Below are positions 1-57,068 of a stretch of 64,000 nt of DNA, piece after piece. The position numbers and the translations under genes were made by a program. The DNA is from Patescibacteria group bacterium. Lineage in GTDB: Bacteria; Patescibacteriota; Patescibacteriia; UBA1558; GWA2-36-10. Below the pieces are notes generated by a model, which saw only the letters and a list, made by a program, of their open reading frames with translations, searched no databases and had not been told where the DNA came from. The DNA lies in NCBI GenBank assembly GCA_041665545.1, contig JBAYIQ010000003.1, positions 3,222-67,221 on the forward strand, in the 5' to 3' direction. The stretch's first letter is position 1. Each line of letters opens with the position of its first letter.

Positions 1-262
1 TCCCTAACTTATCGCTAAATCGCGCGCGATCTAGGGACGCTCTGGTGACATAAAAAATCACCCAGAGCATTAAATAACTGTTCCTTGACTAGAGAGAATT
101 GTGACTGCGTTTTAGGCCTATGGTCACTGTGATTAGAAAGGTCGATCGCCCTTTGGGCGGAGTCCTTTGATTCATAGTTTAGTCTTGCTTTGATCAAGCA
201 GGATGCCTACTACTTACGGCTTTTTTCAAAAGTTTTTGGGACATTATAATTAACAAAGAAAA

Positions 263-3200
263 ATGAATTTATTAAAAAAATTGTTCGTATACTCCGTGGT
301 AATTACCACTGTGTTATGGTCAGTTGGCGCATCTTTTGCACCTTTGGCCGCTAACGCTGCTGGTAGCTACCCAGCCGGCTCACTTTTGGCTATGAAAGGC
401 CAGAGTGGCGCTGCTGTATACTTGATCGGTGCTGATGCCAAGAAATATGTTTTTCCAAGTCAGAAAGAGTATTTCACTTGGTATCCAAACTTTGACAAAG
501 TTGTCAGAGTAACTGTTGCCGAGCTAGATATGTATCCAGACGGTGGTGCTGTGACTGTACGTCCAGGCACCAAATTAGTTACTCATATGAATACTGCCAA
601 GGTTTATGCTATTGAACCAGGCGGAATTTTGCACTGGATCCCAACCGATACCATTGCCAAAGCTTTATATGGTACTAATTGGACCTCACGTTTAGTTGAC
701 GTGATCCCAGGTTATTTCACTTCCTACAAAGCCACTGGCGCTGATGTTTCAGACAAATATGTCACTGGTACTGTAGTCAAGATGGGTACCACCTATTATT
801 ATATTGATGGTACTACCAAGAGAGCTTTTGCCTCTGACGCTGCTTTTACAGCCAATGGCTTGGTAGCCGCTGATGCTGTGGCCGTCACTACCCTTACCGG
901 CTATACTGATGGCACTTCTATCACTGGCGCTGAGACCGCTATCAAGGACTTCACTCCAAATGACACTACAGTTCCAGTAATTGCTGGTAATTTATCAGTT
1001 TCTTTGGCTAGTGACACTCCAGCTTCTGGCGTAGCATATATGAATGCTACCCACGTTGCTTTCACTAAAGTGAAATTGACTGCTGGCAGTAACCCAGTCA
1101 CTATCGATTCTATGGTAGTCAAGAGAACTGGCGTTCCAGCCAGTGATGGCGCTTTTACTGGCGTCAACATCTTGAAAGATGGCGCTATGTTGAGCTCTTC
1201 TTATAAAGCTCTTAACTCCACTCATGAAGCCAACTTCACTGAGGACGTAGTTGTTCCAGCCAATGGTACAGTTTACTTGACCTTGGTTGGTAAGATGGCT
1301 GATGTAACCACCTATGCTGGTGAGACACCAACTTTGTCTTTGACGGGTATTACCACTCTTTCCACTATTACCGGTTCTTTGCCAATCGTAGGCAACGCCA
1401 TGACCACCAATGGTACTATCAATATTGGTGATATAACTATTTCAGAATCCCCAGATTTAAGTACTTTAACTGAAGAAGTTGGTACAGAAAATGTGGAGTT
1501 CTTGAATGTCAAAATGGCTAATGACAGCGCCTCAGCTGATATCCGTGTTGACTCAATCAGATTCAACAATGTTGGTTCAGCTAATGATGCTGATGTTAAC
1601 AATTTAGAGTTAGTAGTTGACGGCAACGTCATTGCTACTGGCTCTATGGTTAGCAATTATGTCAAGTTTGACTTGAGCGCTTGTGGTACTTCTTGTTTGA
1701 TTCAAGATGGCAAGAACGAGACCTTTACCTTGCGCGGCGACATAGTCGGTGGTTCTGGTAGAACTTTGGATTTTGATGTCAAAAGAGCCGATGATATCAT
1801 GGCTTATGATACATTGAACATGACCTATGTTACTCCATCAGCCGCTATTGATGGCGGAAGAACTGTGACTATTAGCCGTGGTATTTTGACTGTCACTAAA
1901 TCCAATGTGGTTCTAGCTGGCAATGTGTCTGAAGCTACAACTGATTTGAATTTAGGTTCTTGGAACTTCAAGGTCCAAGGTGAATCAATAACTATCAGTA
2001 CTATCAAGTTTGATATTAATGTGGAGGGCACAGTCAGTTCCTCTGACTTTACTAATTTGAAATTAGTAAAAGGTGGCACTAGCTTGACAGGTGCTACTGA
2101 TGGCGCTGATGGTTCCACTTCATCCAAAGATGGTGCAGTGACCTTCTCTGACGCCTTTACTTTGCCAATAGGTGATAATGCTATTACTTTAGTTGGTACC
2201 TTGAGTTCTGATGCGGCCAATGCTGACACTGTTCAATTTGGTGTTGACTTTACAGCTGCTTCAACCAATAACTTGGATGCCACTGGTGATGTGACTGGTG
2301 ACGCCATTGCTTTGAGCGCTGTAGCAGCCACTAACTACGCCAATCCTTATGGTGTAGAAATTGATGCTAACTTGATTACTATTACCGACCTAGCCTTATC
2401 AGTGACTACTTTAGGAAGTCCAGCTGGTTCGACAGTGGCGGCCGGCACAGCTGCTCAAACGTTCTCAACCATTCGTTTTGACGCTTCTGCTTCGTCAGAA
2501 AATGTCAAAGTGACTGCCTTTGAGTTTCAATTGACTCCAGCGGCTGGTGGCTACGCCAACCAAATACAGAATATTACCTTCACAGTTAACGGCACTCCAT
2601 TGTCTATCACCAAGAGTGGTACCAGTGCTGTACTAAACACTGCTGAAGAAATTACTGTTTCTTTGTCAGGCGCTGATCAGTTTGTAATACCAAAGGGTAC
2701 AGCCGTGAACATGATTATCAAAGGTGATATATCAGCTAGCGCATCTGCTGCCGCTACATTCAAGATGGATATTACATCCACCAACTCCAATGTAGTGACT
2801 GCTTCTGGTGCTACCTCTGGCAACGATATAGCCGTTGCCGAAGGCACTGCTGTTGCTAATAATATGACCATTGGTACGTCCGGTGGTATTTTGGAAGTCA
2901 GCTTGGCTTCTAACAATCCAGACGCTGCTTTGTTGGCTGGTGGTACAACCGTGTCTTTAGCTAATTTCAAATTCTACGCTACTTCAACTGAAGATGTAGA
3001 GTTAGATTATCTATATCTGACACAAGTTTCCACCGATACTGCTTCTTCTTCATACCTGGATTATGATGAGATCTGGTTTGTGGACGAAGCTGGTACTGAA
3101 ATTGTCGGTACTCGTATGACTCCAACCAGCACCACACCATATATCAACTTTGCTGACAACGCTTTTGTTGTAAACTATTCAGATACTAATGGCGAAATTT

Positions 3201-3967
3201 TGACCTTGAAGGCCAAGCTAGCCACTATTGGTACAGGTTATAATGGTGCCTCTGATCATTATATTGGTTATAAGATCAATGCTACTGCCGATGTAGTGGC
3301 CAAAGGTGATATGACTGGCAATGCTACTGCTGAATATATAAGTACTACCGCTGCTCCAACTGGCAACACTTACTATGTGTACAAGAGTTACCCAATATTT
3401 GCTAGAGTCAATTTGACTGGTGCATTATCCAATGGCACAAAAGATTTGTACAAATGGACTGTAACTGCTGTCAACAATGACCTTGCTTTATACAAGTTCA
3501 TGTTTGATATCGTTACTACAACTGCTATAGTCACAAACTTTTATGTCTATGATGTCACTGGTACAGAAGTTGTCCTAGACGACGCAGCTACTCAAGCCGC
3601 AGGTCCTAGCAGTACTGGTATGACTATTACTACTATCGGTACTTCATGGGATGGTGCTTACCAAACACAAGATGAGGTTGTGGTTTCTAGCGGTACCACT
3701 CGTACCTTTGTGCTAAGAGGCGATGTCACTTTAGCTGCTGCTGGTACTTCCGTATCTGTCAGAATGGCTGGCGACGGAGCCCATGTAGTTGGTACAACTA
3801 CTTTGTTACATAGCGCTACTAACGTTGACGCTGATGCTGAAGATGACTTTATCTGGTCAGATATGAGCGCTTCTTCTCATAGCGATACAACTGTTGACTG
3901 GACCAATGGCTTCTTAGTCTCAGGTTTAGCTAGTCCTTCCACTTCTGCCCAAGTAACTGCTCTATAA
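263..3967 (+). CDS. large secreted Thr/Ser-rich surface protein (S-layer-like; candidate cell-surface glycoprotein)
   Basis: 1234-aa ORF. Signal peptide MNLLKKLFVYSVVITTVLWSVGASFAPLAANAAG. Three ~60-aa N-terminal repeats (G..V...G..AVY.I...K..F.S...F....). Long T/S/A/G/V-rich body with many N-x-T/S sequons. Hairpin terminator directly downstream. Confidence 0.6.
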   Translation: MNLLKKLFVYSVVITTVLWSVGASFAPLAANAAGSYPAGSLLAMKGQSGAAVYLIGADAKKYVFPSQKEYFTWYPNFDKVVRVTVAELDMYPDGGAVTVRPGTKLVTHMNTAKVYAIEPGGILHWIPTDTIAKALYGTNWTSRLVDVIPGYFTSYKATGADVSDKYVTGTVVKMGTTYYYIDGTTKRAFASDAAFTANGLVAADAVAVTTLTGYTDGTSITGAETAIKDFTPNDTTVPVIAGNLSVSLASDTPASGVAYMNATHVAFTKVKLTAGSNPVTIDSMVVKRTGVPASDGAFTGVNILKDGAMLSSSYKALNSTHEANFTEDVVVPANGTVYLTLVGKMADVTTYAGETPTLSLTGITTLSTITGSLPIVGNAMTTNGTINIGDITISESPDLSTLTEEVGTENVEFLNVKMANDSASADIRVDSIRFNNVGSANDADVNNLELVVDGNVIATGSMVSNYVKFDLSACGTSCLIQDGKNETFTLRGDIVGGSGRTLDFDVKRADDIMAYDTLNMTYVTPSAAIDGGRTVTISRGILTVTKSNVVLAGNVSEATTDLNLGSWNFKVQGESITISTIKFDINVEGTVSSSDFTNLKLVKGGTSLTGATDGADGSTSSKDGAVTFSDAFTLPIGDNAITLVGTLSSDAANADTVQFGVDFTAASTNNLDATGDVTGDAIALSAVAATNYANPYGVEIDANLITITDLALSVTTLGSPAGSTVAAGTAAQTFSTIRFDASASSENVKVTAFEFQLTPAAGGYANQIQNITFTVNGTPLSITKSGTSAVLNTAEEITVSLSGADQFVIPKGTAVNMIIKGDISASASAAATFKMDITSTNSNVVTASGATSGNDIAVAEGTAVANNMTIGTSGGILEVSLASNNPDAALLAGGTTVSLANFKFYATSTEDVELDYLYLTQVSTDTASSSYLDYDEIWFVDEAGTEIVGTRMTPTSTTPYINFADNAFVVNYSDTNGEILTLKAKLATIGTGYNGASDHYIGYKINATADVVAKGDMTGNATAEYISTTAAPTGNTYYVYKSYPIFARVNLTGALSNGTKDLYKWTVTAVNNDLALYKFMFDIVTTTAIVTNFYVYDVTGTEVVLDDAATQAAGPSSTGMTITTIGTSWDGAYQTQDEVVVSSGTTRTFVLRGDVTLAAAGTSVSVRMAGDGAHVVGTTTLLHSATNVDADAEDDFIWSDMSASSHSDTTVDWTNGFLVSGLASPSTSAQVTAL

Positions 3968-4010
3968 TTTTTATAAAGCAAGTTGTTTAGTTAAGCAGAT
4001 TTGAAATAGA

Positions 4011-4040
4011 AAAGACCCCACTGTGGGGTCTTTTCTATTT
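4011..4040 (+). terminator. rho-independent terminator
   Basis: Stem GACCCC (4014-4019) pairs with GGGGTC (4025-4030) around an ACTGT loop (A/T can extend the stem), followed by TTTTCTATTT. Sits immediately after the stop of the surface-protein gene. Confidence 0.7.
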
Positions 4041-4082: not shown

Positions 4083-4787
4083 TTGGTAATTTATAAACAT
4101 ATTATGCAAAAAAGAAAAAAAATCTATTTATTGTTAGTCGTATTTTTATTAGTAATTGGTAGTCTTTTTGTTTGGTGGTATCAAAATCAACAAAGTAAAA
4201 TAAAAGTAGATTGGGATAGTCCGGACTATGTATTTGATATCAAGATACCAGACGATTTTGATCAGACAAAAAAAGACAGATTAGAGTTGAAATTGACCGA
4301 GGCTCGTAAAGCTTATGCCGAGAAAAAAGAAGATAACTATACTTGGGATATCATTGGCAATATGTATGAGTTTGTTAGAGATTATGATCGCGCTTTGGTG
4401 GCCTATCAGAAGTCAGTTGCCAAACAACCCAAGGACGTCATAGCCATTTTAAATATTGCTACTATCTATGAGGAGCAAAAAAAAGACTACCAAGAGGCAG
4501 AAAAATATTATTCACAAGCCGTTGTTATTTTTCCTCAAATGTCGGATCTCTATCAGCGTTTGGCCAATTTATATTGGCATAAAATGAATAAATTACAAGA
4601 AGCAGAAACAACCTATGTGCAGGGGATCGAGCAAACAAGTAATAAGCCAGAGTTGATTACTAGCTTGATAAATTTTTATGAGAAGACTGGACAAATTGAT
4701 AAACAAAAGGCATCTGCTAGGAAACTTTTGGAGCTATATCCAGATAATGAAGTTTACAAGAAGGATTATGGTTATTTAGTTAAGTAA
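4083..4787 (+). CDS. membrane-anchored TPR-repeat protein
   Basis: N-terminal TM helix (IYLLLVVFLLVIGSLFVWW) followed by TPR-like helical repeats (YEFVRDYDRALVAYQKSV, YEEQKKDYQEAEKYYSQAV, LANLYWHKMNKLQEAETTY). Confidence 0.5.
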   Translation: MVIYKHIMQKRKKIYLLLVVFLLVIGSLFVWWYQNQQSKIKVDWDSPDYVFDIKIPDDFDQTKKDRLELKLTEARKAYAEKKEDNYTWDIIGNMYEFVRDYDRALVAYQKSVAKQPKDVIAILNIATIYEEQKKDYQEAEKYYSQAVVIFPQMSDLYQRLANLYWHKMNKLQEAETTYVQGIEQTSNKPELITSLINFYEKTGQIDKQKASARKLLELYPDNEVYKKDYGYLVK

Positions 4788-4794: not shown

Positions 4795-7029
4795 ATGCAA
4801 AAAATTTTAGAAAAAATATTTATTTATGGATTGATAGCCATTTTATTTACGCCACTACTGATAGGCGATAGCCTGGTTTTTCCATTTATAACTACCAAGG
4901 CCTATTATTTTTATATTGTAGTAGATATTTTACTAGCAGCTTATTTATTGATTTTGACTAAAAAACCACTATACCCCAAGAAGAATAAATATTTTTTATT
5001 TTTTATTATTTTGACATTAGTTGGTTTTGTGTTTGATTTATTTGGGGTCAAGTTTTTAAATAGTTTTTGGGGGAATTATGAAAGAATGATGGGTATCTAT
5101 ACTTCCCTTCATTTTTTGGCCTATCTTTGGTTGTTGTTAAGCGTGTTTAATACTAAAGAAAAATATTTAAAACTTTTTAAAATAAGTCTAGTGATTAGTT
5201 TTTTGGTAGGTATTTATGCTATTTTGCAGAAAATGCAGGTTGTTTTTTATGGTATGTTGAATATAGATGAAAACCGTAGTTCGGCTACCTTTGGTAATCC
5301 AGCATATTTTGCTGGTTATTTGTTGATCTTCATTTTTATGGCGGCTTATATGCTATTGAGATCAAAACAGGATTTGGTTCTTGATCAGCAACTAACAAAA
5401 CAATCAACGATGATTGCCAAGAGTAAAAAATCTGATAAATATTGGTCTTATTTTTATGTTTTATCTATCTTGTTAAATACAGTAATTTTGTATTTTACAG
5501 CTACTCGTGGTGCTTTACTGGGTTTGGTTGGGGGCGCCATTGTTGGGATTATTTTGGTTATTATATTTCATCATAATCGCAAAATAAAAGTAATTGCCTT
5601 GACTTTATTGTTAGTAGTGGCTTTGGGTTTGTCCTCAATATTTATTTTTAAGCAGTCGTCATTTATAAAAAATAATCTTACCCTAGCTCGTATTAGCGAG
5701 ATTAGCATGAATGATGTCACCACTGCGTCTCGTATCAGACTTTGGAAAATGAGCGTCAAGGCAGTTCAAGATAGACCAATTTTTGGCTATGGCGCTAATA
5801 ACATGAGATTGCCACTTGATAAATATCATGATTATAATCTCTTTGAGGATTGGTTTGATAGCTCACATAACAAATTTTTTGACGAATTGTTGGCCCATGG
5901 CTATATTGGGCTAGGATTACAAATAGCTTTTTTTGTAGCACTGTTTATTTTAATTTTAAAAAAAATCAATGAGGATTTATTGGGCAATGCAACATTATTT
6001 GCCTTATTGGTAGCTTATGTTGTACAGGCGATGTTTATTTTCGATGTTTTTATTGTTAATTTATCATTTATACTTATCTTGGGATTTTTATTTTTAAATT
6101 TTACTGACAAAACCCAAACTAATATTCGACAAAAAAAGATTTCAGTTCATTTAGCTGTGCCAGTTATTATTATTATGGTTTTTGTTTTTTCGTATATTTA
6201 TAGCCACGCTATTAGGCCAGCACACAATATTATTTTAGCTGGTAATTTGACGAACAATGACATGAGTACAGCCATTGATATATATAAAAAAGTTGATAAT
6301 GATTTGTTTGCTAATTATGATATTTTTGCCTCAGCTATGGCAAAAACAGCTATGGAAGTTTTTAAAAATAATCAGCAATATACCGATGTTCAGATTCAGG
6401 GTTTTGTTACACAACTGACAAAAGTATACGAACGCGCCATAGAGGATTCCGGAGGGTATTCGTATTTTTATATCAATTTAGCCAAAATGTATCAGATTGC
6501 CTCAGTATCCCCACGTTTAGACTATCTTGATCAATCATTGACTTTGTTGAATACAGCGTTGGTCAAAGCTCCGAATCGTTTAGATATTTATTATGCTTTG
6601 GCGCAAGGATATTTTATGAAGGGCGATGTTGTAAACGCAGAAGATAATTTAAATAAAGCCCTGGCCTTGGGTGTCAGGCAAGGTGAGATATATTATAAAT
6701 TAGCAGAAATAAGGGCCAGAAAAGGTGACCCAGAATTAGCCATGTCAAATATCAATAAATCTATTGAATTTGGTAAAATTTTAACTTTTGAAGAATTAGA
6801 AAGTTTTGCTAAGTTATTTATTGACAGAGAAAGGTGGTCTGAAGCAGTGCAAATTTTTATCAAAATGGATGAAATGCAGCCAAATAGCGCTGATACTTAT
6901 GCCAACATTGCCTTGACTTATAGTAAGTTGGGTGACAAGCAAAAAGCCATTGAATGGATAAATAAAATTTCCGTTCTTGATCCCAGTAAGGCTGATCAGG
7001 TAAAGGAATTCATAAGAGGATTAAAATAA
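4795..7029 (+). CDS. O-antigen ligase (Wzy_C) family membrane protein with C-terminal TPR domain (candidate oligosaccharyltransferase/polymerase)
   Basis: About 12 predicted TM helices. Wzy_C-type motifs: ATRGALLGLVGG, then a large loop with SSHNKFFDELLAHGYIGLGL. Residues ~470-744 are soluble with TPR-like repeats (YYALAQGYFMKGDVVNAEDNLNKALAL, YYKLAEIRARKGDPELAMSNINKSI). Confidence 0.6.
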   Translation: MQKILEKIFIYGLIAILFTPLLIGDSLVFPFITTKAYYFYIVVDILLAAYLLILTKKPLYPKKNKYFLFFIILTLVGFVFDLFGVKFLNSFWGNYERMMGIYTSLHFLAYLWLLLSVFNTKEKYLKLFKISLVISFLVGIYAILQKMQVVFYGMLNIDENRSSATFGNPAYFAGYLLIFIFMAAYMLLRSKQDLVLDQQLTKQSTMIAKSKKSDKYWSYFYVLSILLNTVILYFTATRGALLGLVGGAIVGIILVIIFHHNRKIKVIALTLLLVVALGLSSIFIFKQSSFIKNNLTLARISEISMNDVTTASRIRLWKMSVKAVQDRPIFGYGANNMRLPLDKYHDYNLFEDWFDSSHNKFFDELLAHGYIGLGLQIAFFVALFILILKKINEDLLGNATLFALLVAYVVQAMFIFDVFIVNLSFILILGFLFLNFTDKTQTNIRQKKISVHLAVPVIIIMVFVFSYIYSHAIRPAHNIILAGNLTNNDMSTAIDIYKKVDNDLFANYDIFASAMAKTAMEVFKNNQQYTDVQIQGFVTQLTKVYERAIEDSGGYSYFYINLAKMYQIASVSPRLDYLDQSLTLLNTALVKAPNRLDIYYALAQGYFMKGDVVNAEDNLNKALALGVRQGEIYYKLAEIRARKGDPELAMSNINKSIEFGKILTFEELESFAKLFIDRERWSEAVQIFIKMDEMQPNSADTYANIALTYSKLGDKQKAIEWINKISVLDPSKADQVKEFIRGLK

Positions 7030-7043
7030 CATTCTAGAAATAA

Positions 7044-9050
7044 ATGCCAGATAAAAATTTAATAAATACTATAAAATTTTTCTTGTTTTTGGGGTTATTG
7101 GTGCCATTAATAGTTGAAGGCAATACTATTTTTCCTTTTATTTTTTCTAAAGTTATTTTTTTTAGAATAATTGTTGATATTGCGGTGCTACTATTTTTAT
7201 GGACACTATGGTCGAAAAAAAATAAGCGCCTTACATTCCATTGGCCGGATATATTATTGTTAGTTTTTGTGTTGTGGGCAATCATATCGGCATTTTGGGG
7301 TGTTGATTTGCAGTATAGCTGGTGGACTGGCCAAGAGAGAATGAGCGGTTTAGTATCATTACTTCATTTTGTAGCTTATTTGTATTTGTTAGTCAATGTG
7401 TTTTCAGCCAAGGATTGGCTTTATTTTTTTAGAGGAATTTTAGCAGTAGGAATTATTATTTTTTTGAAGTCAATAAATGAATTGAACATCGGCCAACAAC
7501 GCGCCTCGGGGCCATTGGGCAATCCTATTTATTTAGGAGAGTATTTTCTTTATTTATTTTGGTTTGCTGGCTTATTATTTTTTATTAATAAAAATAAAAT
7601 TGAACGCTGGATAATGGCTATTTTTTTGTTCTTGGGCATTGTTGGTATTTTTATTTCCGGTAGTCGTGGACCATTGATGTCTTTGGCAGTAGCCCTAGTG
7701 CTTTATTTACTGTGGAATATTCTTCATATAAAAAAATTAAGTATTAAATTAGCACTAGTTTTTTTCGGCATTTCTATTGCCACGGTGATTGGTATGGGAA
7801 TTTTTACACCACAAATTGGTTTTATAAAAAACACGCCGATATTAAATAATTTAGCAGAAGTTAAAAATTTTAGTGGGTCATTGGCCAATAGATTCATAGT
7901 TAGTGGTATTGCCTGGCAATCATCTTTAGAGCGTCCTTTTGGTTGGGGCTGGGAAAATTTTCCTACGGCTTTTAGCATCCACTATAAGCCAGAATTATTA
8001 AAACGCGGTTGGGGTGATAGTAACTTTGATTCAGCTCACAATTTATACTTGGATATTTTAGTTGGCGCCGGTTTTGTCGGTTTATTTTTATGGCTAGCTT
8101 TTTTTGCCTTTATTATTTTTTACATTGGGCGTTTGTATAAAAAATCGGCCAACGAAAAGAATAAATATATTTTACTGATGGCTTTTGTGCTTTCTATTTT
8201 AACCCAATTTTTTGTGGCCTTTTTGCATCCCAGTGGTTATTTGCTTTTATTTATATTGTTAGCTTACATAATTTTTTGTATTAGGCAATCAGACAGCAAG
8301 CAGTTTACAATTGATTCACCTAAAATTATAGTCAAAAGTTTAATTATTATTTTTACTTTGCTGACTTTAATTTTTGTTTATCAAAATTTTAAGGCCTATA
8401 GCGAAAATAAAAATCAGCAAAAAGCTTATCGCAACATTGCCTATCAAAATTATACAGAAGCAGAAAATATTATTAAGGCCAGTTGGGGCTCTTGGGGTCC
8501 CTATGAACGGGATATTTTGCGCAATTATACTGAATATATTGAAGGTATTGGCCTTGGTAATCTGCCGCTAGAACTGCGTAGTGCTTATATACAAATTGTT
8601 AAAGATATAGCCTTAGAAACAGAGAAAAATATTGATAAATACAACAAAAAAAGCCCCACAGAGTACGAGTCCATGTTACGTTCTTATGTTATGCTCTGGG
8701 GAGCTGGCGATAAAAATGAGAATAAAATTAACGAAACATACCAAAAATTATTGGCTATCAATGATAAAAATCAGGCAGTTAATTTTACTTACTTCAACTA
8801 TTTGGCTATCAGCGGACAATGGGACAAGGCCATAGTCCTATTGGATAAAGTGATTAGTGATGAACCAGATATTTATTATGCCTATTGGTACAAAGCCAAA
8901 ATTTATCTTTATTTGAAAGATTATCAAAAGGCCTATGATAATTATTTGTTGGCCAAAGACAGGGGTTTTGCGCCTGACGGACTTGCTGATCAAAATTTAG
9001 TTAAATTGTTTGAGCAGTTAAAAGCTAGCTCTACTAGTCAGCTAAAGTAA
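7044..9050 (+). CDS. O-antigen ligase (Wzy_C) family membrane protein with C-terminal TPR domain (paralog 2)
   Basis: Same architecture as 4795-7029: polytopic N-terminal domain with SGSRGPLMSLAVALV and DSAHNLYLDILVGAGFVGLFL motifs; C-terminal TPR-like region (YYAYWYKAKIYLYLKDYQKAYDNYLLA). Confidence 0.6.
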   Translation: MPDKNLINTIKFFLFLGLLVPLIVEGNTIFPFIFSKVIFFRIIVDIAVLLFLWTLWSKKNKRLTFHWPDILLLVFVLWAIISAFWGVDLQYSWWTGQERMSGLVSLLHFVAYLYLLVNVFSAKDWLYFFRGILAVGIIIFLKSINELNIGQQRASGPLGNPIYLGEYFLYLFWFAGLLFFINKNKIERWIMAIFLFLGIVGIFISGSRGPLMSLAVALVLYLLWNILHIKKLSIKLALVFFGISIATVIGMGIFTPQIGFIKNTPILNNLAEVKNFSGSLANRFIVSGIAWQSSLERPFGWGWENFPTAFSIHYKPELLKRGWGDSNFDSAHNLYLDILVGAGFVGLFLWLAFFAFIIFYIGRLYKKSANEKNKYILLMAFVLSILTQFFVAFLHPSGYLLLFILLAYIIFCIRQSDSKQFTIDSPKIIVKSLIIIFTLLTLIFVYQNFKAYSENKNQQKAYRNIAYQNYTEAENIIKASWGSWGPYERDILRNYTEYIEGIGLGNLPLELRSAYIQIVKDIALETEKNIDKYNKKSPTEYESMLRSYVMLWGAGDKNENKINETYQKLLAINDKNQAVNFTYFNYLAISGQWDKAIVLLDKVISDEPDIYYAYWYKAKIYLYLKDYQKAYDNYLLAKDRGFAPDGLADQNLVKLFEQLKASSTSQLK

Positions 9051-10232
9051 CCCTAGGTATACTTTTTCAGTCTGTTCAATAGTTTTAGCTAAAGAAAAGT
9101 TTTCTTTGATGTTAATATAATTATTTTCTGCTATAATTTGTGCCTGTTCGGCATTGTTAGTTAGTTCAAGTATTACATTTTTTAAAGATAGAGGATTGGC
9201 CGGTGGTACTAGATAGCCGGTTTCTTTATTTTTTAATATTTCTGGGATGCCGCCGACTTCAGTGCTGATCACTGGTATCTTGGCTAGGCCAGCTTCTAGT
9301 ATGGCATAAGGCAGACCCTCTTTGACTGATGGCAAGATAAAATAATCAAAGCCGAGCAAAAATTTCCAGTCTTCATCACTTGGTTTTATGATTTTTATAT
9401 AGTCAGTAAGATTGTTTTCGTTTAAGTATTTTTTTATATTTACTAATTCTGGGCCATCGCCAATGAAAACAAAACGGTTGTCTTTCAAAAATTCTGGCGA
9501 TTCATCGCGAATTATTTTAATGGCCTCGGTCAAATAGTTGTAACCCTTGGCTTTGTAAAAACTGCCAATAGTACCAAAATATTTATATTGTCCATCAAGC
9601 TTGAGCAAAACTTTGGCTTTTTCTTTAGCCAAAAAATTGTATTGTTCAGAATCAACTCCGTTATGAACTACAACAATTTTGTTGGGCAAGCAAATTTTGT
9701 TGCTAATAGCTGACTGCTTGTCGTAATCTGACACAGCGATAATTCTATTTTGCAGGCCAGCCGAGAATGTTTCGGATAATATGTAGGCCTTGCGAACAAA
9801 TTTGTTTAGTGGTTCATTGAAAACATAGCCGTGAGCCGTGTAAATTATGCGCGCCCTGACATTGAGTGGGTTGAAATTATAAAACATGCTGGCTAGAGCG
9901 CCGATAGCGCCGGCTTTGGAGCTATTGAGATGCAAAATATTATAATTACCCTTGTTTAGTAGTTTGGCAATTTCTTTGGTAGCCAAAAATTCATTACCCA
10001 TATCTATATTGCGAATGAGATATTTTATGGGTATAGTCTTGATGTTTAGCTTGTGGCAAGTATCCAAAAATTGCTGATTGGTATTACTGACTTCGCCATA
10101 GGCAATATGCACTTCGTTGTTTTTGGAGAAGTATTCAGCTAGTTCTAGGACATATTTTTGGGCACCACCCCATTTGGTTTGGGTGATGAGGTAGAGTATT
10201 TTCTTGCCAATAAGTTTTTTTTCTTCAGTCAT
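9042..10232 (-). CDS. glycosyltransferase family 4 (GT-B fold)
   Basis: 396 aa. C-terminal GT4 signature EGLPYAILEAGLAKIPVISTEVGGIPEIL. N-terminal Rossmann-like GT4 domain. Overlaps the convergent upstream gene by 9 nt. Confidence 0.65.
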   Translation of the reverse strand: MTEEKKLIGKKILYLITQTKWGGAQKYVLELAEYFSKNNEVHIAYGEVSNTNQQFLDTCHKLNIKTIPIKYLIRNIDMGNEFLATKEIAKLLNKGNYNILHLNSSKAGAIGALASMFYNFNPLNVRARIIYTAHGYVFNEPLNKFVRKAYILSETFSAGLQNRIIAVSDYDKQSAISNKICLPNKIVVVHNGVDSEQYNFLAKEKAKVLLKLDGQYKYFGTIGSFYKAKGYNYLTEAIKIIRDESPEFLKDNRFVFIGDGPELVNIKKYLNENNLTDYIKIIKPSDEDWKFLLGFDYFILPSVKEGLPYAILEAGLAKIPVISTEVGGIPEILKNKETGYLVPPANPLSLKNVILELTNNAEQAQIIAENNYINIKENFSLAKTIEQTEKVYLGLL

Positions 10233-10269
10233 ATATTGACATTAGGGCTAATTTTAGCCAATTTATATA

Positions 10270-10298
10270 TTGATTATTTCTTCCGATTCTGTTATAAT
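10270..10298 (+). promoter_or_regulatory. sigma70-type promoter (TTGATT-17-TATAAT) upstream of the GIY-YIG gene
   Basis: TTGATT at 10270-10275, 17-nt spacer, TATAAT at 10293-10298. About 60 nt upstream of the ATG at 10362. A 14-bp palindrome GGCTAATTTTAGCC (10243-10256) lies in the same divergent intergenic region. Confidence 0.45.
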
Positions 10299-10361
10299 TT
10301 TATAGAATTAATTGATTTAAAGCAAGTATTATTAGCTGAAATACTGATTAGAAAAGTGATT

Positions 10362-10652
10362 ATGTATGGCAAGCAATATTTTGTCTATATTTTGTCTAAT
10401 AAAAATAATACAGTTTTGTACATCGGTATTACTAGTAATTTGTTAGGCCGCATATTTCAACATAAAGATCAAGCAACCAAAGGTTTTACGAGTAGATACA
10501 ATGTAGATAAGTTAGTTTATTATGAAATTTATGAAGATGTTTATGAGGCTATTTCTAGAGAAAAGCAATTAAAGTCAGGGTCAAGACGGAAAAAGGTAGA
10601 TTTAGTAAATAATTTTAATAAACAGTGGGAAGATTTGTGTAATAAGCTATAA
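10362..10652 (+). CDS. GIY-YIG nuclease superfamily protein (UPF0213/YhbQ-like)
   Basis: Start moved to the internal ATG at 10362 (MYGKQYFVYILSNKNNTVLYIGITSNLLGRIFQHK...GFTSRY...LVYYEIYEDVYEAISREKQLKSGSRRKK). This is the canonical GIY-YIG single-domain pattern. The upstream part of the listed ORF has no coding character. Confidence 0.6.
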   Translation: MYGKQYFVYILSNKNNTVLYIGITSNLLGRIFQHKDQATKGFTSRYNVDKLVYYEIYEDVYEAISREKQLKSGSRRKKVDLVNNFNKQWEDLCNKL

Positions 10653-11885: not shown

Positions 11886-13325
11886 GTGATGAAAAAAATT
11901 ATATTAGCACAAATCAACTATTCTCAAGATCGTTCAGAAAAAATTCTGCCAATGGGAATTTTGTGCGTTGGTAGTACTTTAAAAAAAGCGGGTTATGATG
12001 TTGAGCTTGTCAATATCAATGAAAAGGAAATAGCTAAAACAGCTGATTATATAGTCCAACAAGACCCCCTGTATGTCGGCTTGTCAGTGATGACTGGTAT
12101 TCAGACCCAGCATAGCGCCGAGTTATCTAAAAAGATTAAGGCCAAGAAAAATATTCCAATTGTGTGGGGCGGCATTCATCCCTCGCTTTTGCCAGAGCAA
12201 TGTTTGGGTGAGGATTATATTGATTACATAGTAATTTCTGAAGGAGAAATCAGTATTGTGGAGTTGACGGAAAAAATTATTCACCAGGAAGAGCCAGAGG
12301 ATGTATTGGGTGTTGCTTATAAAATAGCCGGTCAAGTCAAAATAAATCCTAGCCGACCTTTTATTACCGATCTAGATGAATACCGAATAGATTTTTCTTT
12401 GATTGATATAGAAAAATTTATTTTTCCCCTAGATAAATATAAGCGGGTAATTGCTTATAAGGCCTCACGTGGCTGTCCTTTTAATTGCGCTTTTTGTTAT
12501 AACAATTTATTTAATAAAAATCGTTGGCGTGTCTGGTCAATTGATACTGTCGTGGAAGATATACAATTTTTAAAAGACAAATATCAGATCGATGCGGTCA
12601 AGTTTTATGACGATAATTTTTTTGTCAGTAAGAGTCGAGCTTTAGAGATTTTAGAAAAAATAAACTTACCCTCACATTTAGAGATTAGGATTGATTCTAT
12701 TAACGAAGAAACTGCCATTAAGCTCAAGGAATACAAAGTTTTTGATATGCTCATAGGAGTAGAATCAGGTAGCGATAGGTTGTTGCAAATGATTGATAAA
12801 AAGTTTACAGTTGAAAAAGTTATGGAGTCTGTGAAGTTATTAGCTAAATATGATTTGCCGGCCTCATACTCGGTAATAGTTGGTTTACCGACCGAAACTA
12901 GCGAAGAGTTTGAGTCTACCATTAATTTGCTTTACAAAATTTATAAAGTTCACTCTAAGGCCGTTTTTACCTTAGGTGCGTATTTGCCTTACCCAGGATC
13001 GCGGATGTATGATTTTGCCATTGCTAATGGTTTCAAGCCACCAGTTAAGACCGAAGGGTGGGGTGCCATTGATCGCTTTCGTAAGAACTTTGACTCGCCT
13101 TGGGTTAATGTCCAAAAAGTTTGGCGAATTAGAGAGTATTTTAAGTTTTTAAACTGGAAATTAGGACCATTGATCAAGTGGTTTGAGTGGCGAATCAAGC
13201 ATCGTTTTTTTAATTTTCCAATCGATATTTATTTAACTGAATATTTTGCTGGTCTAGCGATTGAGCAAAAAGGTTGGTTGGGAAAAAGTTTGCGCCAAGT
13301 TTATAATCTAGCCAAAAGAGTTTAA
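11886..13325 (+). CDS. B12-binding domain radical SAM protein
   Basis: 479 aa. N-terminal cobalamin-binding Rossmann-like domain (GILCVGSTLKKAGYDVELVNI...). Radical SAM cluster motif CPFNCAFC (CxxxCxxC) in ASRGCPFNCAFCYNN. Confidence 0.65.
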   Translation: MMKKIILAQINYSQDRSEKILPMGILCVGSTLKKAGYDVELVNINEKEIAKTADYIVQQDPLYVGLSVMTGIQTQHSAELSKKIKAKKNIPIVWGGIHPSLLPEQCLGEDYIDYIVISEGEISIVELTEKIIHQEEPEDVLGVAYKIAGQVKINPSRPFITDLDEYRIDFSLIDIEKFIFPLDKYKRVIAYKASRGCPFNCAFCYNNLFNKNRWRVWSIDTVVEDIQFLKDKYQIDAVKFYDDNFFVSKSRALEILEKINLPSHLEIRIDSINEETAIKLKEYKVFDMLIGVESGSDRLLQMIDKKFTVEKVMESVKLLAKYDLPASYSVIVGLPTETSEEFESTINLLYKIYKVHSKAVFTLGAYLPYPGSRMYDFAIANGFKPPVKTEGWGAIDRFRKNFDSPWVNVQKVWRIREYFKFLNWKLGPLIKWFEWRIKHRFFNFPIDIYLTEYFAGLAIEQKGWLGKSLRQVYNLAKRV

Positions 13326-15488: not shown

Positions 15489-16613
15489 ATGGATAAAAAA
15501 ATTAAAATTTTATTTGCTATTGATTATTTTGCTGTTGGTGGAGCTCCACTAGTGGTGTTAAATCAAATTAATGGTCTAAACAAAGGTTTATTTGATCCTT
15601 ATATTTTGGTTCTTTATAAGACAGAGAAACCAACATTTTTTGCTGAATTGAATTTTGGACCGGATAAGATTTTCCAGATGAATTTAAAAAATCGTCGCCT
15701 TTTTGATTATAAAACTTGGCGTATGATTTTTAAGATTTTAAAGCGAGAAAAATTTGATGTGGTTTATACTCACTTATTCTTGACCAATTTAATTGTCAGA
15801 TCACTGGCAATTTTAGTCAGAGTTCCAGTCATTATTTCTTTTGAGCATAGCTCTTACTCAGGTAAGCATTTGTGGCAAATTTTTATTGACAAAATCCTTT
15901 CTTTTTTTACCAATCGTATTATTGTCTCTACTAAATCTGTGGCTGAATTTACTGCTAGGCAAGAGAAAATTTCTATTAAAAAATTTGTGGTAATAGCTAA
16001 TCCAGTTATTTTGCCAAAAAAAAATGAGTTTGCTATTTCTGAATTAAGAAAAAAGTTGAATTTGCCATTAGGTTCTTTTGTGGTCATGACACTAGGAAGG
16101 TTTTCCGAAGAGAAGGGTTTGGAATACTTTTTGCAAGCAGCTAAAATAATTTCTCCACTCATAAAAAATGTTTATTTTTTGCTGGTAGGTTATGGTGGAC
16201 TTCAACAAAAGTTAAGGCAAAAGATATTGGAGTTAGAGCTAGAAGATAAATGTAGTCTAGTAATTGATCCTCAACACGCTAAAGAATATTTGTATATTAG
16301 CGATTTATTTGTTCTACCCTCTTTAAGGGAGGGGCAGTCAATAGTCACCTATGAAGCAATGACGGCAGGATTGCCCGTAATTGCTTCGCGTCTGGATAGC
16401 CTTACTGATATTATTGATGATGGTAGGAGCGGAGTTTTAGTAGAGCCAAAAGATAGTGATGCTATAGCTGAAAAAATAATTTATCTTTACCAAAATCCTG
16501 CTATCAGACAGAAATATAGTGAAGCTGGTAAAGAAAAAACTAAAGAATATAATCTTGAAAGAAATATAAAAGAATTTGAAATTTTAATTAAAAATTTAAT
16601 TCAAAAGCAATGA
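15489..16613 (+). CDS. glycosyltransferase family 4
   Basis: 374 aa. EGQSIVTYEAMTAGLPVIASRLDSLTDIIDDGRSGVLVEP (E-x7-E GT4 signature). Confidence 0.65.
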   Translation: MDKKIKILFAIDYFAVGGAPLVVLNQINGLNKGLFDPYILVLYKTEKPTFFAELNFGPDKIFQMNLKNRRLFDYKTWRMIFKILKREKFDVVYTHLFLTNLIVRSLAILVRVPVIISFEHSSYSGKHLWQIFIDKILSFFTNRIIVSTKSVAEFTARQEKISIKKFVVIANPVILPKKNEFAISELRKKLNLPLGSFVVMTLGRFSEEKGLEYFLQAAKIISPLIKNVYFLLVGYGGLQQKLRQKILELELEDKCSLVIDPQHAKEYLYISDLFVLPSLREGQSIVTYEAMTAGLPVIASRLDSLTDIIDDGRSGVLVEPKDSDAIAEKIIYLYQNPAIRQKYSEAGKEKTKEYNLERNIKEFEILIKNLIQKQ

Positions 16614-17923: not shown

Positions 17924-18725
17924 AAATATGTCACATGGCTTTCTTAAAAATTTTTTATTAGTTAAAAAGACTAAAGATAATATTAAGAATGGAAATAAAA
18001 TTTTGTGCGGCTATCGTTTACCCAGTTTATTTTTTAAAAAGTATTGGTTATGGTTTTCCGATCCGATTGACATAAAGGGTGCAGACATGGTGAATTTTTT
18101 TTCTTATAATAAGATTGATCGAGATGAATTTTATTGCAAAGAGGGTATGACTACAGTAATTGATTTAAATCAGGGTATTGAGGCCATTTTTTCGAAAATG
18201 AGAAATAACTTTATTATTAAACAAATTAGAAAAGGGGAGAGAAATGGTATTGTTATTAAGCTGGATAAAAATTTTAGCGAGTTTAAAAATATATATTATG
18301 TGTTTAGGAAGAGTAAAAATTTGACGAAAGATAACCCCAATGTTTTAGCGGATAATGGTATTTTATTTTCGGCTTATTATAATAATAGTATGATTGCCGG
18401 CGGTATATTTATTTCAGATGGTGTAAACATAAGAGCTTGGGTATTGGCGTCGCTAAGAAAAGTAAGTGGTTCAAAGGATCGGGAAATAATTGGCCAAGCT
18501 AATAGAATGGTCATCACTGAAGCTATTAAGTATGCAAAGAATAGTGGCCACAAACAGTTTGATTTGGGTGGTATAAATCCATATTCTACCGATATTGGAG
18601 AAAAAAATTTGGCTGAGTTTAAAGAGAGTTTCGGTGGCGCGAGAATAAAATGTTATTATTACTATAAAGTCTATTCAAAATTGTTAAAACTTTTGATGAG
18701 ATTTAGGGGATTTAAAAAAGTATGA
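17913..18725 (+). CDS. FemAB-like / GNAT-fold (Acetyltransf_6-like) protein
   Basis: 270 aa. C-terminal ...GGINPYSTDIGEKNLAEFKESFGG resembles the F-K-x-x-F-G-G terminus of FemABX family proteins. Central beta-rich region GGIFISDGVNIRAWVLAS. Low-confidence family call. Confidence 0.3.
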   Translation: MAIKNMSHGFLKNFLLVKKTKDNIKNGNKILCGYRLPSLFFKKYWLWFSDPIDIKGADMVNFFSYNKIDRDEFYCKEGMTTVIDLNQGIEAIFSKMRNNFIIKQIRKGERNGIVIKLDKNFSEFKNIYYVFRKSKNLTKDNPNVLADNGILFSAYYNNSMIAGGIFISDGVNIRAWVLASLRKVSGSKDREIIGQANRMVITEAIKYAKNSGHKQFDLGGINPYSTDIGEKNLAEFKESFGGARIKCYYYYKVYSKLLKLLMRFRGFKKV

Positions 18726-24910: not shown

Positions 24911-24919
24911 ATATAAATT

Positions 24920-25558: not shown

Positions 25559-25562
25559 AATA

Positions 25563-30246: not shown

Positions 30247-30255
30247 ACTAAAAAA

Positions 30256-46653: not shown

Positions 46654-46654
46654 T

Positions 46655-48614: not shown

Positions 48615-48616
48615 CT

Positions 48617-50722: not shown

Positions 50723-50724
50723 AT

Positions 50725-57067: not shown

Positions 57068-57068
57068 T

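Follow-up and report, generated by a model that had tools for sequence, protein, structure and literature searches.

Wzy_C-TPR proteins linked to a large surface-protein gene in a Patescibacteria genome: candidate protein O-oligosaccharyltransferases

The analysed DNA (hereafter the window) is a 64-kb stretch of a Patescibacteria (Magasanikbacteria-like) genome, in keeping with an identical protein annotated from a Patescibacteria MAG, and the lineage is of the monoderm type. Its first part, from about 0.1 kb to 45.4 kb, can be read as a surface-glycoprotein island. The features considered here are the following.

124-181, + strand: conserved structured element, about 100-125 nt 5′ of the surface-protein start codon
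263-3967, + strand: secreted surface protein (1234 aa), candidate acceptor and candidate S-layer-type protein, with a signal-peptide-like N-terminus
4004-4040, + strand: strong intrinsic-terminator-like hairpin (17-bp stem and T run) directly 3′ of the surface-protein gene
4104-4787, + strand: TPR-only protein with a membrane anchor (227 aa, counted from the ATG at 4104), matching Pfam TPR families at 1e-9 to 1e-13
4795-7029, + strand: W1 (744 aa), Wzy_C ligase-type enzyme with a TPR domain of about 270 aa (about seven repeats)
7044-9050, + strand: W2 (668 aa), divergent Wzy_C ligase-type paralogue with a weak TPR-like tail
9042-10232, − strand: GT4 glycosyltransferase, opposite in strand to W2
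10762-41781, + strand: glycan biosynthesis cluster with GT4/GT2 transferases, two B12-radical-SAM enzymes and an FkbM methyltransferase
19629-20456, within the cluster: CDP-alcohol phosphatidyltransferase
21997-23787, within the cluster (+): fused ABC exporter of the MsbA/PglK/HepA type
23798-24910 and 26426-27685, within the cluster (+): WbuX amidotransferases with GATase and HisF-like partners
28226-29272 and 30256-30939, within the cluster (+): NeuB and cytidylyltransferase of a nonulosonic-acid pathway, which continues with a formyltransferase, two DegT aminotransferases and a PseB/PglF-like dehydratase (32849-33838)
41795-43159, − strand: initiating phosphoglycosyltransferase (Bac_transf, WbaP/PglC type), divergent from W3
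43244-45406, + strand: W3 (720 aa), third Wzy_C ligase-type enzyme with an outward TPR tail, at the far end of the glycan cluster
59875-60378, + strand: type IV major-pilin candidate (167 aa) with Thr-rich stretches NPTTTPAPTAG and GNPTTTT

The surface protein, described in an earlier note on this DNA as a secreted T/S-rich neighbour of W1, indeed combines its signal-peptide-like N-terminus with a content of 13.9% Thr and 8.8% Ser. Small alpha/beta repeats at the N-terminus are followed by about eight beta-sandwich domains. The top fold matches of the AF2 model (pLDDT 89) were Ig-like domain arrays of Gram-positive surface proteins, and none of the fold matches was specific to a known S-layer protein. 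No Pfam match was found for this protein. Its gene showed the strongest codon bias in the window (Nc 39.4). Homologues formed at least 324 clusters; among the 120 listed, lengths were about 970-1370 aa and all source names were Patescibacteria/CPR. The protein may form an S-layer.

The element at 124-181 consists of an outer stem, a 5′ bulge (nnAAGGUCGr) and an inner hairpin (CGCCC-TTT-GGGCG), with an invariant GGTCG at positions 140-144. It was found in all 16 loci examined, distant loci L026-L028 included, with three to six base-pair types at each stem position and a folding z-score of -5.1 in the window. It had no match in Rfam, and we list it only as associated with the surface-protein module. 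At the other end of the gene, the hairpin at 4004-4040 suggests that the surface gene is a separate transcription unit, as has also been reported for glycosylated S-layer genes (PMC2943079). The TPR-only protein encoded next has a K/R-rich N-terminus followed by one transmembrane helix, and its TPR part is predicted to lie outside. By analogy with WsaA, it is a candidate accessory or acceptor-binding partner. In the mechanical ORF list, this gene begins at the TTG at 4083 instead of the ATG at 4104.

W1, W2 and W3 scored 74.0, 64.7 and 78.4 bits against the Wzy_C family (Pfam PF04932; cut-off 31.7 bits). W1 and W3 shared 30% identity over 671 aligned columns (E 4e-66), W2 and W3 29% (E 1e-31), and W1 and W2 26% in an alignment of the membrane part only (E 9e-34). 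Judged by these alignments, the three are paralogues with 26-30% identity. The earlier note had given them a 12-TM Wzy_C domain and a C-terminal TPR domain each. Its coordinates, family assignment, paralogy and TPR tails stood, whereas hydropathy and AF2 secondary structure predicted 13 helices in the membrane core, and the tails were of unequal strength. The W1 tail matched many Pfam TPR families (1e-9 to 1e-11). The W3 tail had no match to Pfam TPR families at E 0.01, but matched consensus TPR proteins in the PDB (E 5e-34) and could be aligned to the W1 tail. Only a weak signal was obtained for the W2 tail (TPR_19, 1.5e-3; YrrB, 4e-4). Among the 150 relatives closest to the W2 membrane part, about 136 were at least 600 aa long with that part N-terminal. 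The 13th predicted helix places the TPR domain outside the cell and, together with the K/R-rich inner loops, the topology predicts an outward orientation for all invariant residues as well as for the TPR domain. A protein-interaction domain predicted to lie outside is a hallmark of the Wzy_C-TPR family. The AF2 model of W1 (pLDDT 94.8, pTM 0.91) superposed on the WaaL structure 7TPG_B with a TM-score of 0.63 over 462 columns.

Residues R238, R313 and H358 of W1 aligned with R191, R265 and H313 of CmWaaL. This Arg/Arg/His set was invariant in 94 homologues and in 43 sequences from three clades, and the Wzy_C-TPR proteins carry the motif H-N-x9-G-xx-G. In E. coli WaaL the corresponding residues are essential, and PglL conserves them (PMC3643930); PglS and TfpM likewise need the His (PMC12800693, PMC9829042). 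The membership of W1, W2 and W3 in the WaaL/PglL ligase-type group of Wzy_C proteins is therefore supported. Within this superfamily, sequence does not tell apart protein, lipid and glycan acceptors (PMC3643930; TacL, PMC5727136). The PglL-specific Pfam model PglL_A (PF15864) gave no match even at E 10. Accordingly, the comparison with PglL and PilO/TfpO drawn in the earlier note holds for the ligase-type core with its intact Arg/Arg/His, but not for these enzymes as the closest comparators.

The glycan genes have a GC content of 32%, versus 37-40% in the pilus region. The initiating enzyme matched PF02397 with 222.7 bits, and the only exporter in the window is the fused MsbA/PglK-like ABC protein. 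No match to the Wzx, Wzz/PCP or LCP families was found among ORFs of at least 120 aa in the window. The earlier note had regarded a wzx/wzz-dependent polymer pathway as evidence against protein glycosylation; neither Wzx nor Wzz is encoded here.

The new evidence comes from synteny, which shows a close and widespread linkage of Wzy_C-TPR genes to the gene of a large secreted protein. We compared 18 genome-contig loci (species representatives), 16 with any downstream sequence and 15 with enough of it. The surface gene (product about 1,200 aa) was followed by a gene for a membrane-anchored TPR-only protein (about 225 aa) in 16 of 16 loci, and then by one or two Wzy_C-TPR genes in 15 of 15 loci. 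The arrangement is also kept in L001-L004 and, at 30-35% surface-protein identity, in three distant lineages, namely Komeilibacteria, Falkowbacteria and one more (L026-L028), where the TPR-only orthologue lies inside the gene run 3′ of the surface gene; overall, one to three Wzy_C-TPR genes are present. In 8 of the 18 loci, the W2 clade supplies the sole Wzy_C gene paired with the surface gene. No glycan cluster is present in L027, where ribosomal protein L25 and FtsW genes border the module, indicating that the ligase has stayed there with the surface gene rather than with glycan genes. Both L026 and L027 have a PMT-family GT-C enzyme within the module. At the position of the reverse-strand gene at 9042-10232, L001-L003 and L028 also have a GT4 enzyme, and L010-L017 a reverse-strand ORF of comparable length. 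Distant family members reside in glycan or teichoic-acid-like clusters (Wzx, TagF-like, TagD-like, sulfatase) with no surface gene nearby; therefore, the family as a whole is not tied to the surface protein. Gene linkage has served as a heuristic before, in assigning targets to PglL enzymes (PMC3643930). The recurrence of the arrangement across the phylum suggests that W1, W2 and W3 probably attach sugars to the surface protein.

The best-supported reading is that W1, W2 and W3 are O-oligosaccharyltransferases, and we give transfer to protein about an even chance. The WbaP-type phosphoglycosyltransferase would begin an undecaprenyl-pyrophosphate-linked oligosaccharide, which cytoplasmic GT4/GT2 enzymes would extend to a product probably containing a nonulosonic acid with an acetamidino or formyl modification. 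The single MsbA/PglK-like ABC exporter would flip the glycan to the outer face of the membrane. There, W1, W2 and W3 may transfer it en bloc to the 1234-aa surface protein, onto hydroxyls of Ser/Thr (or Tyr), at a WaaL/PglL-type site formed by R238, R313, H358 and other invariant outward-facing residues. The acceptor may be held by their TPR domains on the outside and by the TPR-only protein anchored in the membrane, and the paralogues probably divide up glycans or sites. TPR domains are found in polysaccharide export scaffolds too. The presence of a surface (S-layer) gene beside glycan genes could equally be caused by synthesis of a layer-anchoring polymer.

In an unlikely alternative, the enzymes are TacL- or WaaL-like ligases of a monoderm that transfer an Und-PP-glycan to a membrane glycolipid or another envelope polymer. 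A lipoglycan or secondary wall polymer that anchors or coats the surface protein would account for the gene linkage, and such ligases would need the same catalytic residues and outward topology. TacL is a Gram-positive Wzy_C enzyme that joins teichoic acid to a glycolipid (PMC5727136). The cluster in the window includes a CDP-alcohol phosphatidyltransferase, L005 lies amid TagF-like, TagD-like and sulfatase (LtaS-like) genes, and the L027 module carries a sulfatase gene. Since the window has no LCP ligase, another enzyme must attach any wall polymer. However, TacL and WaaL are about 400 aa long and lack TPR (PMC5727136), in contrast to the outward interaction domain of the present family, and the L027 module stands beside the surface gene without a glycan or teichoic-acid cluster. 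Moreover, no SLH, CWB2 or other polymer-binding domain was recognisable in the surface protein.

It is rather improbable that one or more of W1-W3 are Wzy-type polymerases for a capsule-like or S-layer-glycan polymer, with the final transfer made by another paralogue or enzyme. The Pfam Wzy_C family includes polymerases, three paralogues in a single island invite a division of labour, and distant relatives (L006 and L007) adjoin Wzx flippases. A faint match of W1 to TIGR04370 (“oligosaccharide repeat unit polymerase”; 16 bits, E 0.004) is, however, far under the 40-bit cut-off. The window lacks Wzx and a chain-length regulator, its sole exporter being of the fused ABC type, and the complete ligase set, including the His of the H-N/S-x9-G motif, is kept in the three paralogues and in 43/43 sequences of the three clades. 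In many genomes a single Wzy_C gene lies beside the surface gene, and it cannot be both polymerase and ligase.

The earlier note also proposed the downstream pilins as acceptors, so that W3, or all three enzymes, would be pilin O-oligosaccharyltransferases of the PilO/TfpO/PglL kind. The major pilin does carry the Thr-rich stretch cited there, pglL adjoins pilin genes in 21 of 31 cases (PMC3643930), and pilin glycosylation has been proposed in Saccharibacteria (PMC11623550). Nevertheless, we consider this quite improbable. The link consists only of the position of W3, which precedes the Pil-Chp and type IV pilus cluster by about 4 kb, with nine or more genes between W3 and the pilins, and conservation gives it no support: none of about 25 related loci examined had a Wzy_C-TPR gene directly beside a pilin gene, and the tree places W3 closest to P0105 (833 aa), a protein from a Komeilibacteria surface-protein module. 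The enzymes also gave no PglL_A match. As general O-oligosaccharyltransferases modify several proteins, pilin modification would be compatible with glycosylation of the surface protein.

A classical WaaL role, transfer of O-antigen to lipid A-core, is very improbable despite the database annotation (“O-antigen ligase family protein”) and WaaL as the best solved-structure match, given that described CPR bacteria are monoderm (PMC8871954), in line with the earlier note's suggestion of an organism without LPS, that LPS genes are absent from the window, that the TPR extension is foreign to WaaL, and that the linkage is to a protein gene and not to a core-oligosaccharide locus.

The sequence search of solved structures found only WaaL of Cupriavidus metallidurans (PDB 7TPG/7TPJ; E 4.6e-4), and all other structures among the 50 listed fold matches were TPR proteins. 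WaaL shares the Arg/Arg/His positions with the window enzymes but, unlike them, has about 400 aa and 12 TM helices with both ends inside and no TPR, and its acceptor, lipid A-core, is not an expected product of a monoderm lineage. TacL of Streptococcus pneumoniae resembles them in that it is a Wzy_C enzyme, comes from a bacterium lacking LPS and attaches an Und-PP-linked polymer to an acceptor at the outward side of the membrane (PMC5727136); it differs in its size (397 aa), glycolipid acceptor, and lack of TPR and of linkage to a surface-protein gene. The Gram-negative enzymes PglL, PglS, TfpO, TfpM and PilO have in common with them the Wzy_C domain and the required His and Arg (PMC3643930, PMC9829042). 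PglS likewise has 13 TM helices and an outward (periplasmic) C-terminal domain with a cleft at the active site (PMC12800693), and the genes of PglL-type enzymes often adjoin the target gene. However, the C-terminal domain is small in PglS and a TPR array of about 220-275 aa here, PF15864 is matched by none of the window enzymes, and the candidate target encoded next to them is not a pilin but a multi-domain protein of 1,200 aa.

By analogy, a much closer precedent than PglL or PilO would be the Gram-positive S-layer system of WsfB (Paenibacillus alvei) and WsaA and WsaB (Geobacillus stearothermophilus NRS 2004/3a), which we set beside W1, W2 and W3 by their descriptions and not by sequence. 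In the S-layer glycosylation (slg) clusters of these monoderm species, a WbaP-like initiator and an ABC transporter occur together with a Wzy_C O-oligosaccharyltransferase, which has either a C-terminal TPR domain (WsfB) or a TPR-only gene in front of it (WsaA-WsaB); the S-layer gene close to the clusters is monocistronic, and their G+C content is below that of the respective genome (PMC2943079). The Geobacillus and Paenibacillus transferases are themselves termed “predicted” in that review (PMC2943079). The window organism belongs to another phylum, its surface protein is unrelated to the slg S-layer proteins and only a candidate for that role, its exporter is a fused half-transporter in place of Wzm/Wzt, and its glycan probably contains a nonulosonic acid instead of being a rhamnan. 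Up to three paralogous ligases occur, and the fused TPR domain and the small TPR-only gene directly upstream are both present. All the listed features of the slg clusters were seen in the window, including the WbaP-like initiating transferase, ABC-transporter export in place of Wzx/Wzy, a surface-protein gene close by that is separately transcribed judging from the terminator-like hairpin at 4004-4040, and a G+C content lower than that of the surroundings.

W1, W2 and W3 belong to the ligase type of Wzy_C enzymes and have a TPR domain that is predicted to face outward. Their Wzy_C domains (Pfam PF04932) all score above the gathering cut-off of 31.7 bits:

4795-7029 (+): W1, 744 aa, Wzy_C at 74.0 bits
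7044-9050 (+): W2, 668 aa, Wzy_C at 64.7 bits
43244-45406 (+): W3, 720 aa, Wzy_C at 78.4 bits

The paralogy proposed in the earlier note was confirmed by pairwise alignment: W1 and W3 are 30% identical over 671 aligned columns (E = 4e-66), while W1/W2 (26%, E = 9e-34) and W2/W3 (29%, E = 1e-31) align in the membrane part only. In databases, the identical protein is annotated as "O-antigen ligase family protein" from a Patescibacteria MAG. The TPR tails, which had been assigned to all three, were recovered in W1 (many Pfam TPR families) and in W3, where Pfam missed TPR at E 0.01 and PDB consensus TPR proteins were matched at E = 5e-34; the W2 tail is only weakly TPR-like (TPR_19, 1.5e-3; YrrB, 4e-4). 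An exhaustive HMMER search with the membrane part of W2 returned 3,104 cluster representatives at E ≤ 1e-10, of which 316 had E ≤ 1e-30. About 136 of the best 150 relatives are at least 600 aa long with an N-terminal membrane part, and the C-terminal extension is therefore a family hallmark. This search and ORF-plus-HMM locus scanning superseded a word-indexed homologue search with W2, which, owing to the fast divergence of the W2 clade, retrieved just 18 proteins.

In an alignment of 94 homologues, E96, R97, M98, R161, G167, N168, R238, R313, G331, G333, D355, H358, G369 and F416 (W1 numbering) were invariant. The same residues were invariant among 43 sequences from the three clades found beside surface genes, except M98 and F416 (41 of 43). 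The motif H-N-x9-G-xx-G, reportedly defined by Schild et al. in 2005, is readable in W1, W2 and W3 alike. R238, R313 and H358 of W1 pair with R191, R265 and H313 of Cupriavidus metallidurans WaaL (PDB 7TPG; phmmer, E = 4.6e-4), the only related solved structure. These positions are R215/R288/H338 in Escherichia coli WaaL and R224/R298/H349 in PglL (PMC3643930), and the histidine is needed in PglS and TfpM too (PMC12800693, PMC9829042). The AF2 model of W1 (pLDDT 94.8, pTM 0.91) matched 7tpg_B over 462 columns in Foldseek (TM(target) 0.63, E = 2.6e-5). With the full model this membrane match stood at rank 38 in a list dominated by TPR proteins, which likewise filled the results when a full-length-alignment profile was searched against PDB sequences; a single-sequence PDB search with the membrane part of W3 gave nothing relevant.

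Hydropathy together with AF2 secondary structure gave 13 transmembrane helices rather than the 12 counted in the earlier note. By hydropathy, an 85-90-residue loop between TM9 and TM10 holds R313 and H358. From the helix order, the K/R-rich inner loops and the large loop (285-359), we infer by the positive-inside rule and the WaaL topology that all the invariant residues lie on the outer face. The loop before the extra helix (436-450) contains four K/R and is predicted inside, so that helix 13 (451-470) would carry the TPR array, modelled as about 15 helices (residues 473-743), outward.

The TPR-only gene, W1 and W2 are tightly packed, with gaps of 7 and 14 nt, and belong to a neighbourhood with the following features:

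4004-4040: terminator with a 17-bp stem, at the end of the surface gene
4104-4787: TPR-only gene (Pfam TPR), ending 7 nt upstream of W1
21997-23787: fused ABC exporter, the only one in the window; best NCBIfam matches to HepA, MsbA and PglK types
41795-43159: Bac_transf initiating phosphoglycosyltransferase, divergent from W3

The TPR-only protein has one N-terminal helix behind a K/R-rich start, and its TPR part should therefore also face outward. Directly downstream of W2 lie a reverse-strand GT4 gene and then more GT4 and GT2 enzymes, in a glycan cluster that includes a CDP-alcohol phosphatidyltransferase. Two WbuX N-acetyl-sugar amidotransferases (320 and 330 bits) surround a GATase/HisF-like pair at 23798-27685, and NeuB, a CMP-sugar cytidylyltransferase, a formyltransferase, two DegT aminotransferases and a PseB/PglF-like dehydratase are encoded at 28226-33838. 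Together, these genes predict an acetamidino- and/or formyl-modified sugar of the pseudaminic or legionaminic type. An FkbM methyltransferase follows the nonulosonic-acid genes, before Bac_transf. Among the less usual members of the cluster are a weakly RtcB-like protein (RNA ligase family; 16610-17923), two B12-binding radical-SAM proteins (11886-13325 and 38615-40084) and a faintly FemAB-like protein (17913-18725). Between two divergent GT4 genes lies a GIY-YIG nuclease ORF (10158-10652, forward strand; Pfam 65.8 bits), possibly inserted into the cluster in the manner of a homing endonuclease; as called mechanically, it overlaps the 5′ end of the GT4 on the reverse strand.

Downstream of W3, a chemosensory set (MCP, CheW, CheA and CheY; 45511-49033) directly precedes a type IV pilus region (49037-60378) with PilB/PilC, several pilin-like proteins and PilM, in a Pil-Chp-like arrangement. 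A 315-aa ORF (57015-57962) has acidic repeats rich in cysteine. Beyond the pilus genes are a 1037-aa protein that combines a pilin-like N-terminus with LamG/DUF2341 (lectin-like) domains, and a 466-aa protein with LamG, both candidate host-binding tip adhesins.

The gene order recurs around orthologues of W1 at 53% and 39% identity, where ECF sigma and DUF5667 genes come first. A protein of about 1,220-1,264 aa is encoded next, then a TPR protein of about 230 aa; two Wzy_C genes follow, with a GT4 on the reverse strand behind them. The large proteins there are 51% identical to the surface protein of the window. A scan with the surface protein, taking one genome per species, yielded 18 loci, which were then scanned with ORFs plus HMMs. 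The TPR-only gene is next after the surface gene in all 16 loci with any downstream sequence, and one or two Wzy_C-TPR genes follow it in 15 of the 15 loci with enough sequence. In a neighbour-joining tree these Wzy_C-TPR genes fell into three clades: one with W1, one with W2, and a general one that includes W3. Eight species have the W2 type alone and two the W1 type alone; both types occur together in five loci including the window, and W1 with a W3-like gene in one.

Surface-protein homologues at just 30-35% identity still have the module. The order is surface gene, a 643-aa protein, PMT, TPR and two Wzy_C genes in Komeilibacteria (L026), and surface gene, Wzy_C-TPR, TPR, Wzy_C, Wzy_C-TPR and GT4 in a third distant lineage (L028). 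In Falkowbacteria (L027), surface gene, PMT, TPR and Wzy_C are followed by the genes for ribosomal protein L25 and FtsW; the ligase there goes with the surface gene, not with a glycan cluster. Farther members of the family (about 27% identity) have no adjacent surface gene; their clusters, of a glycan or teichoic-acid-like kind, contain Wzx, Bac_transf, PMT, TagF-like, TagD-like and sulfatase genes. This indicates that the family is broader than the surface-protein partnership.

Enzymes of the PMT/PMT_2 GT-C family are of the protein O-mannosyltransferase or ArnT type. In L026 (15175-16848) and L027 (12773-14416) one is encoded after the surface gene and before the TPR/Wzy_C genes; another adjoins a Wzy_C-TPR gene in a distant relative, L006 (12287-14062). 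They add outward-facing glycosyltransferases of a second kind to the module. The related loci come from Magasanikbacteria, Komeilibacteria, Falkowbacteria and other Patescibacteria MAGs. Some module-bearing MAG records (L008, L009, L010, L014-L017 and L024) are titled "uncultured Gammaproteobacteria bacterium", which is probably a taxonomic mislabel in the deposited assemblies, the module being clearly patescibacterial.

The adjoining surface gene (263-3967) encodes, as the earlier note had described, a 1234-aa secreted Thr/Ser-rich protein, with a signal-peptide-like N-terminus, 13.9% Thr and 8.8% Ser. Its homologues form at least 324 clusters. The 120 homologues listed are about 970-1370 aa long, are called "hypothetical" where named and, with the exception of a single hit in one protein, lack Pfam domains. 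The AF2 model (pLDDT 89, pTM 0.51) predicts about eight beta-sandwich domains behind three small alpha/beta repeats, and its best fold matches were Ig-like arrays (PrgB and AgI/II of Gram-positives), alpha-2-macroglobulins and integrin legs. The fold search gave no specific match to a known S-layer protein, and no wall-binding or sorting domain was matched at the protein ends among Pfam models or PDB sequences. Codon bias is stronger in the surface gene (Nc 39.4) than anywhere else in the window. Horizontal transfer was considered for its higher G+C content (43% vs 32%) and rejected: the excess is at codon position 2, reflecting a Thr/Ala/Gly/Ser-rich composition and not a foreign origin. The label "S-layer" is reasonable but unproven: the signs for it are indirect, namely the signal peptide, the Ig-like array, the codon bias, the terminator behind the gene, and a large family whose members vary little in length. 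S-layer proteins have been predicted in Patescibacteria in a preprint (10.1101/2024.05.28.596244), and these may or may not be of this family.

Genes for an ECF-type sigma factor and a DUF5667 protein precede the surface gene in every relative with upstream sequence; the corresponding place is just left of the start of the window. Coordinates of the pair in five loci and of a leader element in the window are as follows:

L001 3218-5150: ECF sigma/DUF5667 pair
L003 3073-4909: ECF sigma/DUF5667 pair
L026 6565-8383: ECF sigma/DUF5667 pair
L027 5110-8855: ECF sigma/DUF5667 pair
L028 6453-8585: ECF sigma/DUF5667 pair
Window 124-181: bulged hairpin with GGTCG at 140-144, 100-130 nt before the ATG of the surface gene

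The DUF5667 protein is likely the anti-sigma partner, and the pair suggests envelope-stress-type control of the surface protein. The hairpin occurs at the same place in L008-L018, L022, L023 and L025-L028, with GGTCG invariant in every locus. It consists of a 9-12-nt 5′ bulge (nnAAGGUCGr), then an inner hairpin flush with an outer stem, which in most loci encloses the two. According to an anchored pair-counting script, the stems covary between species, with three to six base-pair types per position across 16 loci, and folding z-scores range from -1.2 to -5.1. An Rfam search with the hairpin gave no match. Stems of unequal length lose register in a MAFFT alignment of the motif, for which reason RNAalifold predicted no pairs on it. 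The element is a candidate for a new cis-regulatory RNA of the surface gene, or possibly a DNA element.

The reading we favour, to which we give about an even chance, is that W1-W3 would be protein O-oligosaccharyltransferases (O-OTases) that serve the neighbouring surface protein, exclusively or among other targets, with the TPR partner assisting. Schulz et al. found that plain sequence comparison cannot tell WaaL from PglL and used adjacency of the target gene, in 21 of 31 cases (PMC3643930); our argument for the acceptor is the same adjacency, with much deeper conservation here. The main rival is a non-protein acceptor, since TacL is a Wzy_C enzyme of a monoderm with a lipid acceptor (PMC5727136). 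W1-W3 would then be lipid or wall-polymer ligases building the anchor of the surface layer, and the CDP-alcohol phosphatidyltransferase of the window and the TagF-like, TagD-like and sulfatase genes adjoining a relative (L005) can be read in this sense. TacL has about 400 aa, a glycolipid acceptor and teichoic-acid genes; W1-W3 are larger and TPR-tailed. We consider this alternative unlikely, though with an appreciable chance.

Polymerase activity of one or more of the paralogues is distinctly improbable. Wzx adjoins the Wzy_C gene in two distant relatives (L006 and L007). Among window ORFs of at least 120 aa, no match was found to Wzx (Polysacc_synt/MATE/MurJ-type), Wzz/PCP or LCP families; a polymerase locus would feature Wzx with Wzz/PCP, and the earlier note had named such genes as contrary evidence to its proposal of protein glycosylation. 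Searches with O-antigen_lig, Wzy_C_2 and named ligase and polymerase models (Pfam to E 10, NCBIfam to E 1) gave two sub-threshold hits only: W1 to the polymerase model TIGR04370 (16.1 bits vs a cut-off of 40; no match for W2 and W3), and W2 to TIGR03097, "putative O-glycosylation ligase, exosortase A-associated" (39 bits vs a cut-off of 188). As they point opposite ways, both were set aside. A slim chance, slightly below that of a polymerase, goes to O-OTases directed at pilins, a role not exclusive of surface-protein glycosylation. NPTTTPAPTAG was indeed found in a 167-aa pilin, and the pilus genes lie downstream of W3. A classical WaaL is very improbable: it shares fold and chemistry with W1 but has neither the 13th helix nor the TPR domain and needs lipid A-core, CPR bacteria described so far are monoderm (PMC8871954), and no lpx, kdt or lpt genes were found in the 64-kb window or the 20-kb loci.

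A wider proposal, which we put forward only tentatively, is that across Patescibacteria an Ig-like-domain protein of about 1,200 aa may be the main S-layer-type surface protein, glycosylated by a coupled TPR protein and one to three TPR-Wzy_C O-OTases. The paralogues would deliver different, fast-evolving glycans (here nonulosonic-acid-containing), and control would come from the ECF sigma/anti-sigma pair and the AAGGUCG hairpin leader. If true, the candidate phyla radiation (CPR) would here have both its first defined protein-glycosylation system and its first defined surface-layer cassette. Patescibacteria/CPR make up a large share of bacterial diversity and the ones cultivated to date attach to host cells, so that their surface is the site of symbiosis; to our knowledge, its composition is almost unknown. 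Our literature searches found no description of this family or module in Patescibacteria, and nothing for Candidate Phyla Radiation with O-antigen ligase; one Patescibacteria hit, the Lipocone preprint, deals with other proteins. A 2024 study of Saccharibacteria pili calls their glycosylation "unexplored" (PMC11623550). The surface protein, TPR partner, ligases and glycan genes provide a testable gene set for CPR surface glycosylation, and a major surface-protein family so far only "hypothetical" gains a candidate identity. Hundreds of "O-antigen ligase" annotations would be corrected in a lineage not expected to make LPS, and TPR-guided O-OTases could be of glycoengineering interest, should they follow acceptor rules other than those of PglL, PglS and TfpO.

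Among known O-OTases, PglL proper, which the earlier note had named among its comparators, is not the right home for W1-W3: PglL_A (PF15864), which sets PglL apart from WaaL (PMC3643930), had no match in the three membrane parts in Pfam even at E 10. The plan of W1 recurs in PglS, which is described as having 13 transmembrane helices and a C-terminal domain that lies in the periplasm and forms a cleft at the active site (PMC12800693). WsaB of Geobacillus stearothermophilus and WsfB of Paenibacillus alvei are Wzy_C proteins predicted to be S-layer O-OTases. WsfB has a C-terminal TPR and WsaB none, its gene being preceded by wsaA, which encodes a 168-aa TPR-only protein. Both clusters have a WbaP-like initiator, an ABC transporter and a G+C content below that of the respective genome, and the Geobacillus cluster lies near an S-layer gene transcribed on its own (PMC2943079). 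By the published description, the window shares each of these points: it has both fused and separate TPR domains, with the TPR-only gene 7 nt upstream of W1, as well as the Bac_transf initiator, the ABC exporter and the terminator (4004-4040) behind the surface gene. Of the listed points, the exporter alone differs: it is a fused MsbA/PglK-like protein in the window and Wzm/Wzt in the WsaB and WsfB systems.
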